In this document: one piece after another, positions 14,072 to 62,490 of the stretch
Layout: each line of letters begins with the position of its first letter
Position numbering within the stretch: position 1 is the stretch's first letter
From: Shigella phage ESh26
Sequence record: ON528736
Direction: 5' to 3' (one strand)
Length of the DNA stretch: 64,000 bases
Translations under genes and position numbers: made by a program
The notes under the pieces: model-generated
The model's input: the letters and a program-made list of their open reading frames with translations, nothing else
Database searches by the model: none
What the model was told of the DNA's origin: nothing

Positions 14072-14290
14072 TTATGTTTTGCGACTAAATTGTTCATAGT
14101 GCTGAATTACCTCTCTTAAACATTTGCATGTGAATGAAAACTTTTTAGCTACACCACATTCAAATATATGTTCTCTTAAATCGCGTGTGTCAGTATATCC
14201 CATCTCAACAATAAAATGTCGTATTAGATTTTTATCTTTATCATTGAGAGAATTAAAATAATCGGATTTTGAATTAATTTCCCTGGCCAA
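14072..14290 (-). CDS. Hypothetical protein (arn.1 position), Cys-containing
   Basis: 72-aa ORF in compact minus-strand operon. Confidence 0.5.
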   Translation of the reverse strand: MAREINSKSDYFNSLNDKDKNLIRHFIVEMGYTDTRDLREHIFECGVAKKFSFTCKCLREVIQHYEQFSRKT

Positions 14291-14570
14291 ATTGAATCAC
14301 CTTCAGTTGACGTTTTAGTTCTTTTATCATTTCTTCGTTCATCGCAATATAAAGATCGCGTAAAGCAGGTTTTAGCATTCCATTTATTGGGGAACTAAAT
14401 GGACATACATAATCTTTTCCTACGAGCTTTTTGGTGAATTCCATATTACAGAATTGAAATGCCGGTTCATTGGCATAAATTCCCCAATTAGTTGACATCA
14501 TTTTATTGGCATATTCCAGTGCCTGGATTTGATTCTTAATTCCATCAATTTGAAACTTTTTAATATTCAT
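14274..14570 (-). CDS. Hypothetical protein (arn.2 position)
   Basis: 98-aa ORF, overlaps neighbours by a few codons. Confidence 0.5.
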   Translation of the reverse strand: MNIKKFQIDGIKNQIQALEYANKMMSTNWGIYANEPAFQFCNMEFTKKLVGKDYVCPFSSPINGMLKPALRDLYIAMNEEMIKELKRQLKVIQFGQGN

Positions 14571-15031
14571 TAGTAAAGGTCCTCAGAGTAAAGTTCTTTT
14601 TCACTACCACCACGTTCAATACGTACTTGTCCAGCGTAAGTTGCAATAATCATTGCTTCTTCACGTGTCCAGTAATTACTATATTGGTCAATAAACCCTT
14701 GGTCATCATCACAAACTTGTTGAGTAACTAATTGAGGTTTAACTACATCTAAAACTTCTGCCATATCTTTAGAATAATGACGAGCACCTGGAATAACAAG
14801 AGTTCGTCCATCTTTTAATTTAAAACGGTTGGCTGCGCAAACAATTCGTCGTTGATATTTTTGATTTTCGTCCCAATATGCAGACTGCCAACAGATTTCA
14901 GGAACTTCTGCAAGAATATCTTCTTCTGTGCATTTATAACCATGCGCTTTAAATTTTTCAACAAGACTTTCTGGAGTTTCACGAGATAAAGGAACATTCA
15001 GCATTTTTAAACGATTAATAAATGGGTTCAT
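14570..15031 (-). CDS. Hypothetical protein (arn.3 position)
   Basis: 153-aa ORF, start overlaps upstream stop. Confidence 0.55.
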
Positions 15032-15357
15032 TTAAACCATCCTTTAATACGCTGCCACAAAGTTTTCTGTTGAGCTTTGTTAACACCAATTGAGCGAATA
15101 ACTGGTTGAGATTCCTGGAATTCTTTATAATCAGCAAGGTAAATTTCGTAAGCTGCATCCGTAAATGAACTTATCGCCGCCATAAAATTATTGCGAATAC
15201 CTACTGGAGCATCTTTACTTTCACGAATAATCATGTATTTACCAGTCTTAATCTTTACGATAGTTCCAAGATAAGCTCCATGGTACCAGATGTCCCACCC
15301 CTCTTGAGTGGGTTCTGCACAACGACGAAGTTCATTAACAATTTCTAACTTGTTCAT
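15028..15357 (-). CDS. Hypothetical protein (arn.4 position)
   Basis: 109-aa ORF. Confidence 0.55.
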
Positions 15358-34982: not shown

Positions 34983-35165
34983 TTATTTTGCCCAGGGAGC
35001 CCAGGGCGGAGGGTCAAGATGGTATGAAGCTAGTTCTTCTAGAAGAGCATCTGGGGCTTCAATTCCATAATTCTGTAATACTATACGGTACTCTTTCTTA
35101 TAATCACTAGAATCATTCTGGATATTCGTAGAATGATTATCTTCTAACATCTCAAATAAATCCAT
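34983..35165 (-). CDS. Hypothetical protein (60 aa)
   Basis: ORF. Confidence 0.4.
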   Translation of the reverse strand: MDLFEMLEDNHSTNIQNDSSDYKKEYRIVLQNYGIEAPDALLEELASYHLDPPPWAPWAK

Positions 35166-35173
35166 ATTAATTC

Positions 35174-35644
35174 CTAGCGATAAAAACCAAAATGACGATT
35201 AGCTTCAATAATCTTTCTTTCTTCTTCGGACATTCTCCAGCGTAGTCCAACATCAAAATGAGCCCAGACCATCTTAACAAATGCATTTATATCTTTAATA
35301 TCTTCAATAATGAATGTTTTACTTTTAGAAGGTTGACTAGCTAATTTAACTTTATCGTCTTCAAACAGGTCAAAAAGACCATATTCATTAGCTCTTTTAT
35401 AGCCTTTAATAGTTAAAGCTTCAGAAGAAGAAAACGGTGAATCTGTATTATGTAAAATATCTTCAGTATGCTTTATAATTAGAATAACATTTTCTGGATA
35501 TTTTCTTTCTTTTATATCTTTAATTAAACGATCCGGATTTTCTGCTAAAGGAATAATTAATGAGCAATTTTTATTAAGTGTATTTACTGATTTACCTTCT
35601 TTAGACATAAATTCTATTGAATATCGTTTTGCTACTTCAATCAT
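35174..35644 (-). CDS. Hypothetical protein (156 aa; mrh region)
   Basis: ORF. Confidence 0.5.
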
Positions 35645-35797
35645 GTGATTTCCTTTTGCCTACTAATGGACCGTCAGGAATTTTGTTTTCCTGGATATAT
35701 TTCTCATTTTCTTCCATCATTTTACTGCCAATTTTAAGAAGCAAATCCATTGCTTCATTTGCTTTAGCTTTAGCCTCTTCTAATGTCATATCTCTGT

Positions 35798-36001
35798 TCA
35801 CGATTTATCCCCATAGATGTCTCTCATTAATTTAAGCGCTGAGCGTTCTAATTTCTTTTCTTTCTCAGCACTAATCATTGATTTCATCCATTCTTCTGAT
35901 TCGTTCTGCATTTCTTTATTTGCTTGTTCAACCCAACCATCATCAATATACATTGAGTTTGGTCTACTGAACCATTCAAGCATTTTCTTCAGAACTTTCA
36001 T
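35798..36001 (-). CDS. Hypothetical protein (67 aa)
   Basis: ORF. Confidence 0.4.
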
Positions 36002-36473
36002 TTGTTTTACCTAAAACAACAGTAGGAGCATCATCAAATTCATGAATTTTTAGCAAATTTGGATGTAAACTATTCCACACAGAAGAAATAAAGTATGATA
36101 AAGCATCTTCACTTGCAATTATAAATTTATTTCCTTTATCTATTTTCCAACTATATACTGAATCATACGAATAAAAAGATAAAGGGTTATCATTATATTG
36201 TTCTGCGCTAACATTAATGTATTCTGATTTAGTAAATGCTTCAATTGCTCTAAACGGAATATTTGGTACAGTTTCAATAATACCAATCTTTTTAAGTTTT
36301 ATTTCAGCATCTTCTGGAACTGGCATTGAAACGAAATTTTCTACGAGATACATTGGGTCACAATAACCCTTATCAATCATTACCGCTACGGTAATTGGAA
36401 CATCTTTAGCAAACGACAAACTATTACTGCTAATATACATTTCAAACAAAATCGCTTCCATAATTTTCCTCAA
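35976..36473 (-). CDS. Hypothetical protein (165 aa)
   Basis: ORF. Confidence 0.5.
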
Positions 36474-36808
36474 TCACAAGATGTAGATGAACAACTAAAA
36501 TCACAAGAACTTCCACATGAATCACCCGTCCACACATGAACAGGAACATTAGTATCATATGAATCAGAACTAGACTGTGTATTCTGCGTATTAGATGATG
36601 TAGGTGTTGACCAACGCCAAGGATTTTTATAATATTCTTGGGCTTCTTCATAAGTCATAGTAACTGCTTCTACTGTTCCATCTCCCATATAAACATATTC
36701 AACTACAGTTAAAGGAAGGTAGTCGTTTGAAATAGGAACTACACCTTCTCCGGGAGTTGTAGAGAAAAAATCCGTAAAGAAACTTTTAAACCAATTAAAG
36801 ATAAACAT
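36470..36808 (-). CDS. Hypothetical Cys/Ser-rich protein (112 aa)
   Basis: ORF with C-terminal ...[18 protein letters not shown]. Confidence 0.45.
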
Positions 36809-37014
36809 TACAAAAAGCCTCTCTTGAATTCGACTTGCTTTTCGCCATAATCATATCGAATCTCTGCATTAAATTCGACAGAACCATCTGCGTACATCAT
36901 AAATGAATGCACAACAACTTCTGTAGACCATGGCTGCAGTTCATATTTTTTCATTACATGCCGTGAAATGATAATATCTAAATCTTCATTTGGTTTAATC
37001 CAGCGATTTAACAT
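36808..37014 (-). CDS. Hypothetical protein (68 aa)
   Basis: ORF downstream of early promoter. Confidence 0.45.
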   Translation of the reverse strand: MLNRWIKPNEDLDIIISRHVMKKYELQPWSTEVVVHSFMMYADGSVEFNAEIRYDYGEKQVEFKRGFL

Positions 37015-59474: not shown

Positions 59475-59552
59475 TTTCACCTCTTAGCTCAATTCATAGA
59501 TCTATTATATCATAATATTTGAAGATCTATCTTAAAGCATAGAGGATATCAG

Positions 59553-59822
59553 TTATCTAAGTAAGCAGTATGCTTGGAATACTTTCTCCATCATCTTTTT
59601 AAATTCATGAATATCTATATAATGACTAGTTAAATCAGCATGATATAAAAAGTCTAAAAACTTTTCATGTGTGCTAGCATATTCACTTTCATTTAATTCA
59701 GAAACATGGCTTTCCCAATATCCAACACCAGTCTTATTTGGGAAAAATGAAATTTTCATGTATTGGTCAACATAGAAAATTCCATAATTTTCAATAGTAA
59801 TAGAAATATTAATAAATTTCAT
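59553..59822 (-). CDS. Hypothetical protein (89 aa; 55.x)
   Basis: ORF. Confidence 0.45.
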   Translation of the reverse strand: MKFINISITIENYGIFYVDQYMKISFFPNKTGVGYWESHVSELNESEYASTHEKFLDFLYHADLTSHYIDIHEFKKMMEKVFQAYCLLR

Positions 59823-60040
59823 ACATTCATCAACTTAGCCGCTTCAAGAGCTGCATCTAACGAATCAAACTGGTCAACGTATTCAATCAATTCGCCATAA
59901 TTAGCGTATAACCACCATTGGCTAAATTCATACTCAAGGATGAATCCATTTCCTTCAATTTGAGTTAAACCAATGCCATTTGTATTTACTTCATATCCGG
60001 CAAGACGCAAATCGTTAATAAGAGCTTCGTTCATATTCAT
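59819..60040 (-). CDS. Hypothetical acidic protein (73 aa; 55.x)
   Basis: ORF. Confidence 0.45.
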   Translation of the reverse strand: MNMNEALINDLRLAGYEVNTNGIGLTQIEGNGFILEYEFSQWWLYANYGELIEYVDQFDSLDAALEAAKLMNV

Positions 60041-60363
60041 ACCTTAGCAATTTTCAGGTCAGCAAATTTTTTCTTGCGTTGATTTTTCATACGACGAATA
60101 GTTTTATCGGAAATTTCATGCTTTTGATAAGCTTTAGATTCTACGCCAAAAGCTTTAACATCAAATTCTGACAAGATATATTGAACCAACAATTCACGGA
60201 CAGTATTGCGCCCAATCTTCTGATCATTCTGTTTCATCGTCTGATGAAGCTCTTTTTCCCATTTATCCAAAATTTGAGGAGTTACAATATCACCTTTTTC
60301 TAGCAAAGAAACTACTTTATCATATGCATAAGAATTGATGGCGTTTTTAATTTGAATAGTCAT
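60037..60363 (-). CDS. Hypothetical protein (108 aa; 55.x)
   Basis: ORF. Confidence 0.5.
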   Translation of the reverse strand: MTIQIKNAINSYAYDKVVSLLEKGDIVTPQILDKWEKELHQTMKQNDQKIGRNTVRELLVQYILSEFDVKAFGVESKAYQKHEISDKTIRRMKNQRKKKFADLKIAKV

Positions 60364-60400
60364 ACATTATCCTCAATTACATTAAAATTTTATTATCCAA

Positions 60401-60416
60401 AAGGGCCGAAGCCCTT
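60401..60416 (-). promoter_or_regulatory. UUCG-tetraloop hairpin
   Basis: Minus-strand RNA AAGGGC-UUCG-GCCCUU overlapping stop of 60415..60615 ORF. Confidence 0.6.
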
Positions 60417-60615
60417 AGCTAAATTTTTTGGCACCCTTCCAGCCTTCGTACATCATTGCAGCTGATATTAATATTGCTCCTGCGCATTTTGAATATTTGT
60501 GATTCCAAAACCAGTTTAGAAAAACTTCGTCATCAATACCTTGGGCTATCATATTTTCAAAGAACTGACGACGAGCTTCAGCAATTCGTTGCGATAATTT
60601 AGATTCAGGATTCAT
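60415..60615 (-). CDS. Hypothetical protein (66 aa)
   Basis: ORF. Confidence 0.45.
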   Translation of the reverse strand: MNPESKLSQRIAEARRQFFENMIAQGIDDEVFLNWFWNHKYSKCAGAILISAAMMYEGWKGAKKFS

Positions 60616-60831
60616 TTAAATTTTCCAGTTACCATTTTCATCAATAAATTTAATCCAGTCATTTACTGACCACTTGGTCGTATCGCCTTTTGGAGCAACA
60701 TTTAAAGTGTATAATCCTTGTTTAAAAAGCATGCGTTTGATATTCATATTTTCCTCAGCTATAACGATAACACTCGTTTGATTTACGCTTAGCAACTCGT
60801 TGAGAAGTATTGTAATCAAAATCATCGTCAA
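60616..60831 (-). CDS. Hypothetical protein (71 aa)
   Basis: ORF. Confidence 0.4.
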   Translation of the reverse strand: MTMILITILLNELLSVNQTSVIVIAEENMNIKRMLFKQGLYTLNVAPKGDTTKWSVNDWIKFIDENGNWKI

Positions 60832-61048
60832 TGTAAACTGATTTTTTCAACTTTCTTACTTCACCACGTAATTGACGATTTAGCTCATCTTTAACTTCTG
60901 AATCAATGCCTTTCATTCTACGCCATTTATCTGAGCGAAAAATGTTTTCAACCATATCTTTATGACTTACACCATCAGGAGCTTTACGCTTTCCGAAATA
61001 GTCATAATCACGAACTTTCAAGTCTTTACGACGATACGTTTTACCCAT
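60755..61048 (-). CDS. Hypothetical highly basic protein
   Basis: Track ORF 60755..61093; first ATG at 61048 gives MGKTYRRKDLKVRDYDYFGKRKAPDG... (97 aa); Lys/Arg-rich. Confidence 0.4.
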   Translation of the reverse strand: MGKTYRRKDLKVRDYDYFGKRKAPDGVSHKDMVENIFRSDKWRRMKGIDSEVKDELNRQLRGEVRKLKKSVYIDDDFDYNTSQRVAKRKSNECYRYS

Positions 61049-61223
61049 GGAGTTTAATTTCCTTAGCAACTGAACTAAATACAGCACGATCACAAATCAT
61101 CTGTTTATGTAACTTGAGTATAAGATAATAAACTTCAAAACCGTTTACATAAGTAACACGAACAACATTACCATTAATAAAATAATATTGTCCCTTTTTA
61201 ATTTCTTTATCAACCACAACCAT
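61041..61223 (-). CDS. Hypothetical protein (60 aa)
   Basis: ORF downstream of early promoter. Confidence 0.4.
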   Translation of the reverse strand: MVVVDKEIKKGQYYFINGNVVRVTYVNGFEVYYLILKLHKQMICDRAVFSSVAKEIKLHG

Positions 61224-61253: not shown

Positions 61254-61283
61254 ATAATACCATAGTTTGAACTTCTTGTAAAC
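61254..61283 (-). promoter_or_regulatory. T4-type early promoter
   Basis: Minus strand GTTTAC-18 nt-TGG-TATTAT. Confidence 0.6.
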
Positions 61284-61363
61284 AACTTTGTGAAATTATT
61301 TTAGGGAACGATAAGAAGGGAACGATAGATTAGAATGGTAATATACAGAATGCGAGAAAGAAA

Positions 61364-61376
61364 GGCCCAGAGGGCC
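61364..61376 (-). promoter_or_regulatory. Short GC hairpin after nrdH
   Basis: GGCCC-AGA-GGGCC inverted repeat 5 nt after nrdH stop. Confidence 0.4.
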
Positions 61377-61380
61377 CGTC

Positions 61381-61691: not shown

Positions 61692-61904
61692 CTATTCCTT
61701 ACTAAGAGCAGCATTCAGCTTATTAGTAATTTTATCCAGACGCTCATTGAACTCGCTAGAAGACAGTCCTTTTTCTGGAGAAATCAAACTAATCACGAAA
61801 AATATAACAATAAAAGGAATAAGGAAAATAGCTCCAACTGCCATAAACAAAAAGAATGTTACGGTTGTAAGAAAATCAGCTAAACCTTTACGAAATTTAT
61901 ACAT
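61692..61904 (-). CDS. Hypothetical single-TM membrane protein (70 aa)
   Basis: ORF with hydrophobic helix FLFMAVGAIFLIPFIVIFFVISLI. Confidence 0.45.
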   Translation of the reverse strand: MYKFRKGLADFLTTVTFFLFMAVGAIFLIPFIVIFFVISLISPEKGLSSSEFNERLDKITNKLNAALSKE

Positions 61905-62019
61905 ATTTTACCCTTAATTGATTAACCAAGCATTGATAAGCACTAAACTATATTGCGAATAAAATTCTGGACCAAAATGAAAAATCATATCATTTATAGT
62001 GTCCATAATATAATTCAAT

Positions 62020-62490
62020 TTAATCATGTTTCCACACCCCATCGGTATTTGACCAAAGTCGCTGATTATCTGATCCTCGCCACAGCTTTTTGGTCGGAAG
62101 ATTTTTCTCATACTTCCCATCAATAATAACATCAACATATTTAAGCATTTCTAGTTGTTTAATATCTTCAAACTTATATCCTGTCCACAACCAAATGCTT
62201 TTATTTGGATAAAGATTTTTTACTGTTTGAACCACAGAGTGAATAACATCTCGGTTATCGGGATAGAGAGGGTCTCCTCCAGTTATAGTTAATCCTTCTA
62301 TATAATCATTATTCAAACATTCAATTAATTGTTCTAGTGTTTCACCAGTGAATGGAACGCCATTTCTAGCGTTCCATGTTGATTTATTATAACACCCTTC
62401 GCATTTATGCAAACAACCTGTAACGAAAAGAACGACCCTGCATCCAGGGCCATTCACAAAATCGCAAGGATAAAATCTATCATAATTCAT
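62020..62490 (-). CDS. nrdG: Anaerobic ribonucleotide reductase activating protein NrdG (radical SAM)
   Basis: 156-aa ORF with CxxxCxxC cluster (GCLHKCEGCYN); size as T4 NrdG. Confidence 0.9.
   Translation of the reverse strand: MNYDRFYPCDFVNGPGCRVVLFVTGCLHKCEGCYNKSTWNARNGVPFTGETLEQLIECLNNDYIEGLTITGGDPLYPDNRDVIHSVVQTVKNLYPNKSIWLWTGYKFEDIKQLEMLKYVDVIIDGKYEKNLPTKKLWRGSDNQRLWSNTDGVWKHD

Follow-up and report, generated by a model that had tools for sequence, protein, structure and literature searches.

Positions 59553-61223 of the window, by which we mean the whole analysed stretch of 64,000 nucleotides from Shigella phage ESh26 (ON528736), very probably hold the orthologue of the T4 early accessory cluster 55.6-55.1 together with a DUF7200 gene that was deleted in T2, T4 and T6, and the products would be early-expressed, small and non-essential proteins that adjust the host. 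The cluster as such is already known: T4 and hundreds of its relatives have it annotated, and mechanisms have been published for two of the genes.

Expression of the cluster would begin right after infection, with host sigma-70 RNA polymerase starting at 61282-61254. Transcription would run leftwards through 55.6-55.3, past a weak hairpin (presumably by read-through), and then through 55.2, 55.1 and DUF7200 towards gene 55, with translation coupled by abutting or overlapping stops and starts. The small, non-essential proteins so made would act on host processes. For gp55.2 this step would be inhibition of topoisomerase I, as for the T4 protein, which differs by one residue; for gp55.1 it would be binding of FolD and UvrA, as in T4, where the protein ends in a different C-terminal tail. 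The products of 55.3, 55.4, 55.5, 55.6 and DUF7200 are presumably binders of host or phage macromolecules, and their description as host modulators is drawn from context. Early expression and non-essentiality were taken from the T4 orthologues, the phage of the window being known here from its sequence alone.

Identity and layout of the cluster

The window was 98% identical to Tequatrovirus genomes in sequence comparison and is assigned to that genus. Between gene 55 and nrdH, positions 59553-61223 are filled by seven close-packed ORFs, all on the minus strand. Gene-by-gene correspondence with the annotated clusters of T4 and ime09 identifies them as orthologues of T4 55.6, 55.5, 55.4, 55.3, 55.2 and 55.1 plus one DUF7200 gene, the six 55.x orthologues sharing 76-100% amino-acid identity with T4. 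Genes 55.1-55.6 of T4 (NC_000866, 40193-41646) likewise lie between gene 55 and nrdH, in the same order and on the same strand, and share the early promoter and hairpins; the window differs in its additional 89-aa DUF7200 gene, located between 55.1 and gene 55. The initial annotation had treated the set as uncharacterised, a description that does not hold for the orthologues of T4 55.1-55.6, since functions of gp55.2 and gp55.1 have been published (PMC4396842 and PMC10653837).

The ORF starts were set by Shine-Dalgarno sites and orthologues, with two corrections. Read from the sequence, the overlap of 55.6 with 55.5 is 8 nt long, 55.4 runs directly into 55.3 (TAAATG), 55.2 and 55.1 are separated by 2 nt, and 55.1 and DUF7200 share an ATGA overlap. 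Pfam DUF families were matched by six of the seven proteins (E 1e-34 to 1e-65) and PHROGs families by all seven. Wherever dS was estimable, dN/dS was 0.03-0.41 (comparisons with T4, a Mosigvirus and a Gaprivervirus), as under purifying selection; synonymous sites were saturated for DUF7200 in both comparisons and for 55.1 against the Gaprivervirus, and there pN was far below pS. Because of these dN/dS values and the Pfam DUF and PHROG matches, the seven ORFs are taken to be real genes, so that the packed run of small ORFs between gene 55 and nrdH noted by the initial annotation was borne out. The ORFs did not all turn out to be housekeeping proteins. The NCBIfam scan of the cluster gave no match, and the Rfam scan gave only sub-threshold chance matches.

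Promoter, terminators and expression

A T4-type early promoter for host sigma-70 is located at 61254..61282 (minus strand), with the sequence TTTACA-N17-TATTAT and a TG extension. With 10 of 12 matches plus the TG, it was the best sigma-70-like match in a scan of the region, and the early promoter proposed at this place by the initial annotation was thus recovered. The site is kept in T4, has been labelled T4-early-promoter-like in phage SA20RB, and fits the PST/T4 PeSL promoter consensus TTTACW-N17-TAYWAT (PMC4122927).

Directly after nrdH, the terminator scan found an intrinsic terminator (61363..61377, minus strand) consisting of a GC-rich hairpin followed by a T-run. This hairpin is conserved in T4 and ime09, carries a terminator annotation in SA20RB, and is interpreted as the stem-loop member of a terminator/promoter pair. 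In the promoter-early stem-loop (PeSL) cassettes known from hyperplastic regions of T4-type phages (Arbiol et al. 2010; Comeau et al. 2014, PMC4122927), a stem-loop terminator is likewise followed by an early promoter, as it is on the upstream side of the island; those cassettes are compact, whereas the stem-loop and promoter of the window are approximately 80 nt apart. No PeSL-mediated indel was seen at the island among close relatives. A second hairpin, AAGGGC-TTCG-GCCCTT (60401..60416, minus strand; read from the sequence), directly follows the 55.3 stop codon and divides the cluster into a 55.6-55.3 block and a 55.2-55.1-DUF7200 block. SA20RB has a rho-independent terminator annotated there, and the hairpin is regarded here as a weak terminator or an RNA-stabilising stem. 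Upstream of gene 55, the intergenic stretch 59481..59552 (minus strand) contains TATAAT-type promoter elements, and a sigma-70-like site is annotated there in SA20RB; alignments with T4, T6 and T2 showed that part of this stretch is translated in T4 as the C-terminal tail of gp55.1.

According to T4 omics data, all six 55.x orthologues are transcribed as early RNA, and 55.2, 55.4, 55.5 and 55.6 are detected as early proteins (PMC9697503 supplements). In CRISPRi-ART knock-down, T4 55.1-55.6 were scored "Not Fit" and gene 55 was scored "Fit" (PMC11879866 supplement). Deletion mutants are viable, with slightly reduced fitness (PMC4396842).

The 55.2 and 55.1 orthologues

The 55.2 orthologue (60037..60363, minus strand; 108 aa) belongs to DUF7570 (PF24454; Pfam E 3.1e-42). 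Its product is basic (pI 9.7) and identical to T4 gp55.2 at 107 of 108 residues (99%), T106A being the sole difference; the T4 protein has the same length and genomic context. T4 gp55.2 is a DNA-binding protein that inhibits the topoisomerase I of E. coli (Mattenberger et al. 2015, PMC4396842). The window protein is accordingly placed in the T4 55.2 family by sequence, and its likeness to the T4 protein suggests that it would also inhibit topoisomerase I. The gene was found in all eight genera compared. The PDB search with 55.2 gave matches with the Scm SAM domain and AbiV that were not significant (E 0.013-0.3).

The 55.1 orthologue (59819..60034, minus strand; 71 aa) belongs to DUF5495 (PF17599; Pfam E 4.5e-45 over residues 1-70), and its product is acidic (pI 4.05). 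An alternative ATG is present at 60040. Identity to T4 is 94% over 71 aligned codons, with residues 1-63 nearly identical and the tails different. T4 gp55.1 binds FolD and UvrA (Mattenberger et al. 2011, cited by PMC4396842 and PMC10653837); according to the same two papers, it forms a complex with FolD, causes trimethoprim hypersensitivity and blocks nucleotide excision repair. The T4 protein is 87 aa long, and its last ~23 residues come from a +1 G frameshift found only in T4, which leads the reading frame into the DUF7200 remnant and the gene-55 promoter region. The window protein lacks this tail and ends in ...AAKLMNV; the 55.1 proteins of T2, T6 and the further genera compared, like that of the window, have a different and unrelated C-terminus and an overall length of 71-88 aa. 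Because the published work was done on a protein with the 23-residue tail that is missing here, FolD and UvrA binding may or may not carry over to the gp55.1 of the window.

The four genes proximal to nrdH

The first gene of the cluster, 55.6 (61041..61223, minus strand; 60 aa), had a PHROGs match (phrog_2283, E 3e-37), no Pfam match, 93% amino-acid identity to T4 and a dN/dS of 0.18-0.20. The ime09 allele has only ~70% nucleotide identity, and is thus a divergent allele within the genus.

The 55.5 orthologue (60755..61048, minus strand; 97 aa; DUF5499, Pfam E 3.5e-65) is 100% identical to T4 at the amino-acid level. It is the protein singled out by the initial annotation as highly rich in Lys and Arg, and its composition agrees (27 K+R in 97 residues, 28%; D+E 18%; pI 9.8). 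An alignment of 44 members showed a nearly invariant N-terminus, MGKTxRRK. The AF2 model built from 44 sequences (pLDDT 62, pTM 0.32) was too poor for a fold search, and by itself the protein is predicted to be largely disordered. Searched with a profile, the PDB sequences gave no match. The family comprises 24 clusters, nearly all of them ~90 aa long and stand-alone, and in three more genera 55.5 is directly upstream of a 55.2 homologue or of a 55.2-sized ORF (the latter judged by size and position only). Given its basic composition, predicted disorder and conserved N-terminus, we infer that 55.5 is the best candidate in the cluster for a nucleic-acid- or ribonucleoprotein-binding protein.

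The short 55.4 orthologue (60616..60747, minus strand; 43 aa; DUF5484, Pfam E 1.3e-34; 95% amino-acid identity to T4) has a strong GAGGA ribosome-binding site and a dN/dS of 0.03-0.08. A 71-aa version with a TTG start, present in the mechanical ORF list, was rejected as a by-product of the 55.5 coding sequence, its start not being real.

The 55.3 orthologue (60415..60615, minus strand; 66 aa; DUF5490, Pfam E 4.8e-35) was 76% identical to T4 and 88% identical to Gaprivervirus VR25 at the amino-acid level. The surrounding DNA showed the same trend, with 91-95% identity to Gapriver/Dhaka phages and 75-83% to T4. In T4, 55.3 is 79 aa long through a 1-nt insertion that produces a frameshift tail. 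A match of 55.3 to the designer propeller Tako8 (E 1.5e-6) contained zero significant stretches, the score being inflated by the eight identical repeats of the target. The literature search on gp55.3 to gp55.6 yielded no more than a brief reference to gp55.4, which is named there as an early-to-middle transcript.

Conservation and gene content

At least 80% of the 2-kb stretch was present in 499 of 594 matching phage records, at 92-98% identity, and the only difference in gene content among the Tequatrovirus records inspected was the loss of DUF7200 in the T2/T4/T6 clade. These comparisons suggest that gene content is almost fixed across ~500 Tequatrovirus genomes and that the island is not isolate-variable, contrary to the variation between isolates that had been expected. 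Plasticity appears to take three forms: the deletion of DUF7200, mosaic alleles of 55.3 and 55.6, and changes in content between genera, in which 55.3, 55.4 and 55.6 are genus-restricted and extra ORFs are inserted elsewhere.

A recently shuffled, mobile hyperplastic module lying between PeSL cassettes and carrying essentially arbitrary cargo is unlikely. Such a module would account for the terminator and the consensus-fitting early promoter at the upstream edge, for the inserted ORF or promoter-like motifs found in other genera at the point of the hairpin that follows 55.3, and for the 55.3-55.4 segment, which is 91-95% identical across genera against a background of 55-65%. However, the order 55.2-55.1-DUF7200-gene 55 is kept in eight genera (T4, with DUF7200 deleted, being the exception), all genes are under purifying selection, and Tequatrovirus content is nearly invariant. 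Shuffling therefore seems to act on alleles and on the nrdH-proximal half, and not on the whole island.

It is distinctly improbable that the island is mainly an anti-defence cassette, whose early proteins would inhibit immune systems and whose content would be turned over between isolates by an arms race. The near-fixed content of ~500 Tequatrovirus genomes argues against such turnover, although the mosaic 55.3 and 55.6 alleles, the genus-restricted genes and the insertions in other genera would fit it. The proteins also resemble many anti-defence proteins in being small, made early and not required in the laboratory host, but both characterised members target housekeeping host proteins rather than immune systems. 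Scans with PADLOC, NCBIfam, Pfam and PHROGs yielded no anti-defence evidence: PADLOC returned a single match at chance level (E 0.014), NCBIfam returned none, and Pfam and PHROGs returned only families of unknown function. In addition, 55.x genes go unnamed in the main text that describes the HIDEN-SEQ defence screens of T4/Bas37. Of the host-takeover and anti-defence role that the initial annotation had associated with such regions, the general host-takeover label stands, and the anti-defence part found no support in these scans or in that main text.

The DUF7200 gene and reference bias

The last gene of the cluster (59553..59822, minus strand; 89 aa) is of the "RB69ORF072c" type (DUF7200, PF23830; Pfam E 1.9e-35). 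The Pfam match reached 121.6 bits (gathering cut-off, 27) and covered positions 1-89 of 89; RB69ORF072c has the same position upstream of gene 55, and the window protein is an ordinary member of the family. DUF7200 was found in 866 phage records. It lies directly upstream of gene 55, which encodes the late sigma factor, in at least eight other genera of Tevenvirinae, some of which have tandem duplicates. T2, T4 and T6 lack it through one common 262-bp deletion, which points to a single loss in their ancestor.

The AF2 model of DUF7200 (pLDDT 92.6) is a four-strand beta-meander with two helices. Foldseek found nothing in the PDB at E ≤ 1e-3, and the search against BFVD returned family members only. 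A match to yeast Spo16 in a single-sequence PDB search (E 6e-4) was lost when the family profile was used. The profile itself matched calmodulin through an EF-hand-like helix (E 0.013); this match was not significant, had no calcium ligands and is attributed to chance.

Beyond its membership of the accessory cluster, there is only a slender chance that DUF7200 is an accessory gene of Tevenvirinae that is conserved and important in function and was missed by all classical T4 genetics, which never tested it because it is absent from T4. Its features would be in keeping with a factor linked to host range, anti-defence or late transcription, one required by natural T-even phages but not by laboratory strains.

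The mildly new point is one of reference bias, DUF7200 being conserved, with a confident fold and no solved relative, and absent from T4. The value of the cluster as a discovery is small. Its practical value is in the correction of this bias: T4 is atypical, having no DUF7200 and frameshift-derived tails on 55.1 and 55.3, and results obtained with T4 gp55.1 may therefore not be directly applicable to the more usual form of 71 aa. Interaction screens could reasonably be directed at the five proteins other than gp55.2 and gp55.1, which are conserved and early; four of them are detected by T4 proteomics.

Database fusions of 55.5 and 55.4

A 55.5::55.4 fusion made by programmed frameshifting or slippage at an A6 run in 55.5 (near 60842-60847) is highly improbable. 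Exactly such a fusion occurs in three independent 143-aa database proteins (P0080, P0084 and P0087), and each of the four genera with both genes has the A6 run together with an open +1 frame. However, not one of 491 phage genome records encodes the fusion, 55.4 is preceded by a strong ribosome-binding site of its own, and openness of the +1 frame carries no signal, since synonymous resampling of 55.5 keeps it open with a probability of 0.48-1.0. The three fused proteins are best read as 1-nt deletions or homopolymer assembly errors.

Identity and coding capacity of the island

The seven ORFs at 59553-61223 constitute the known 55.x cluster of T4, in the form that is usual outside T4, and the genes are accessory and early. 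All seven were found on the minus strand by ORF calling, and in the annotated ime09 and T4 records the island is flanked by nrdH and by gene 55, which encodes the late sigma factor. True ORF limits were fixed from ribosome-binding sites and orthologues. Given with their amino acid identity to T4, the orthologues are 55.6 (61041-61223; 60 aa, 93%), 55.5 (60755-61048; 97 aa, DUF5499, 100%), 55.4 (60616-60747; 43 aa, DUF5484, 95%), 55.3 (60415-60615; 66 aa, DUF5490, 76%), 55.2 (60037-60363; 108 aa, DUF7570, 99%, with one substitution), and 55.1 (59819-60034; 71 aa, DUF5495, 94% over the shared part). The seventh ORF, the DUF7200 gene (59553-59822; 89 aa), corresponds to no T4 gene and is noted as "RB69ORF072c" in ime09. 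The translated T4 locus matched the island one-to-one for 55.1-55.6. The tight packing first noted by eye was borne out, neighboring stop and start codons overlapping or abutting, and the Lys/Arg-rich protein was identified as the 55.5 orthologue (28% Lys+Arg, pI 9.8).

Where dS could be estimated, dN/dS was 0.03-0.41 (Nei-Gojobori; comparisons with T4, Mosigvirus, and Gaprivervirus). Saturation at synonymous sites affected both comparisons of DUF7200 and the comparison of 55.1 with Gaprivervirus, pN remaining far lower than pS in each. These substitution patterns argue firmly that the ORFs are real genes. Pfam returned DUF families only (the six listed, DUF7200 included), and PHROGs returned only families of "unknown function".

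Conservation within Tequatrovirus and exchange between genera

The 4-kb stretch around the island matched 960 phage records, and many Tequatrovirus genomes were 98% identical to it. Gene content proved nearly fixed within Tequatrovirus, against the variation between isolates proposed in the initial annotation: 499 of 594 matching records covered the 2-kb stretch to 80% or more, with 92-98% identity, and the sole difference in gene content within Tequatrovirus was the DUF7200 gene. The 262-bp deletion junction of this gene is identical in T4, T2, T6, and Pu-Krd-SF5, which points to a single ancestral loss. The term hyperplastic therefore applies to the exchange of alleles and, between genera, to the nrdH-proximal half of the island, but not to gene content from isolate to isolate. 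A mosaic segment at 60450-60800, covering 55.3, 55.4, and the last part of 55.5, was 91-95% identical in nucleotide sequence to Gaprivervirus VR25 and Dhakavirus IME08, against a background and flanks of 55-65%, and its 55.3 part (60450-60600) was only 75-83% identical to T4. The segment looks like a recent exchange of a short cassette between genera. The 55.6 allele of ime09 was approximately 70% identical to that of the window, with 97-100% identity over the rest of the ime09 stretch.

All eight genera compared contain 55.2, 55.1, and DUF7200, the last always adjoining, or almost adjoining, gene 55. A tandem DUF7200 paralogue beside gene 55 was confirmed in Karamvirus CC31 (locus L008, 2332-2876); second copies at the same position in Kanagawavirus and a Klebsiella phage (L007, 2595-3115; L009, 2559-3103) are doubtful, being alignable at 16-19% identity and escaping detection by phmmer. 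The genes 55.3, 55.4, and 55.6 were restricted to Tequatro-, Mosig-, Gapriver-, and Dhakavirus. Gene 55.5 also occurs in Serratia phage 4S, a Roskildevirus, and another Klebsiella phage; in all three it immediately precedes an ORF as large as 55.2, recognized by size and position only. DUF7200 was present in 866 phage records and 55.5 in 815. In Mosig-, Gapriver-, and Dhakavirus, 55.6 and 55.5 are separated by an additional ORF of 82-85 aa, and in Mosigvirus another ORF lies at the hairpin that follows 55.3; both are absent from the window and T4. The extra ORFs (79-85 aa) lie at 790-1038 and 1742-1981 of the Mosigvirus locus (L004), 1036-1290 of L010, and 809-1066 of L005, the last two from related genera. 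Promoter-like and stem-loop-like motifs were seen in the alignment at some insertion points.

T4 as the atypical member

An extra G found in T4 alone removes the 55.1 stop codon, and the C-terminal residues of the 87-aa T4 gp55.1 are encoded by a DUF7200 remnant and the gene-55 promoter region (window 59510-59900; T4 locus 640-990). A T4-specific extra C likewise abolishes the stop codon of 55.3, and T4 gp55.3 (79 aa) gains 13 residues encoded across the hairpin. The 71-aa 55.1 and 66-aa 55.3 are the forms of T2, T6, and most relatives; the T4 tails are non-ancestral. The cluster is already known, and some interest attaches only to T4 being the odd one out: because T4 is atypical here, the conserved DUF7200 gene has been kept outside T4 genetics.

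Expression

The early promoter proposed initially (61282-61254, minus strand; TTTACA-N17-TATTAT with a TG extension) is T4-type, is the best sigma-70-like site of the region, is kept in T4, and is T4-early-like in the annotation of phage SA20RB. It matches the consensus TTTACW-N17-TAYWAT reported for promoter/stem-loop (PeSL) cassettes of T4-type hyperplastic regions (PMC4122927), which agrees with the allele shuffling found at the island. A scan placed a hairpin terminator after nrdH (61377-61363, minus strand); sequence inspection and the SA20RB annotation place a second, AAGGGC-TTCG-GCCCTT, after the 55.3 stop (60416-60401, minus strand). Host RNA polymerase would initiate at the early promoter at once upon infection, and the transcript would span 55.6-55.3, in part reading past the hairpin. 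Since no separate promoter was found ahead of 55.2, we infer that it runs on via 55.2, 55.1, and DUF7200 toward gene 55. In time-resolved omics of T4, all six genes 55.1-55.6 fell in the early RNA class, and 55.2, 55.4, 55.5, and 55.6 were detected as early proteins (PMC9697503 supplements). Genome-wide dCas13d knock-down of T4 in a laboratory host had no fitness effect for 55.1-55.6, whereas gene 55 was required (PMC11879866 supplement).

Functions of the products

The initial annotation considered the set uncharacterized; it comprises T4 genes 55.1-55.6, and functions have been published for two products. T4 gp55.2 inhibits topoisomerase I of Escherichia coli and is toxic when overexpressed (PMC4396842), and T4 gp55.1 acts through FolD and UvrA to influence folate metabolism and to block nucleotide excision repair (Mattenberger 2011, as summarized in PMC4396842 and PMC10653837). 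The products would be small nonessential modulators, a role established in T4 for 55.2 and, with the caveat of its tail, for 55.1, and presumed for the other five. A literature search returned no functional work on 55.3-55.6 or DUF7200. The suggested anti-defense genes received no support (NCBIfam, 0 matches; PADLOC, one chance-level match, E 0.014), and, in its main text, the HIDEN-SEQ transposon study (T4 and Bas37 on defense-carrying hosts) does not mention the 55.x genes.

The AlphaFold2 model of DUF7200 (33-sequence alignment) was confident (pLDDT 92.6, pTM 0.81), with a predicted fold of four beta-strands followed by two helices. Foldseek gave no PDB relatives at E ≤ 1e-3, and BFVD gave family members alone, all uncharacterized. 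A single-sequence match to yeast Spo16 disappeared under the family profile.

The 55.5 model was poor (pLDDT 62). In the alignment of 44 homologues, the N-terminus MGKTxRRK was nearly invariant, with a few conserved basic or acidic positions, and HMMER, run exhaustively against 1.84 billion representatives, yielded only 24 clusters, nearly all stand-alone and approximately 90 aa long. Together these features suggest that 55.5 may fold upon a partner, plausibly nucleic acid or a ribonucleoprotein. In three metagenome-derived proteins of 143 aa (P0080, P0084, and P0087), loss of 1 nt from an A6 run (60842-60847) joins 55.5 residues 1-68 to 55.4. This fusion was dismissed, being encoded in 0 of 491 phage genomes; the open +1 frame in 55.5 lends it no support, since the protein sequence of 55.5 by itself leads one to expect such a frame with P = 0.48-1.0.

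Neighboring regions

The regions initially listed as similar islands also consist of named T4 genes according to the annotation of relatives: 14072-15357 corresponds to arn.x genes (Arn.2 and Arn.3 named), and 34983-37014 to the modA.2/modA.3-srh-mrh.2-mrh.1-mrh cluster. Some of these genes are characterized, among them those for Srh, a sigma-32 decoy, and Mrh. The two stretches 61914-62138 and 61692-61904, between nrdG and nrdH, together encode the 70-aa predicted membrane protein 55.8 and a short ORF, the latter annotated in ime09 and not in T4. In T4 the homing endonuclease gene mobC separates nrdG from nrdD; the window lacks it, and nrdG (62020-62490) shares its last bases directly with the nrdD ORF (62487 upward) at the end of the latter.
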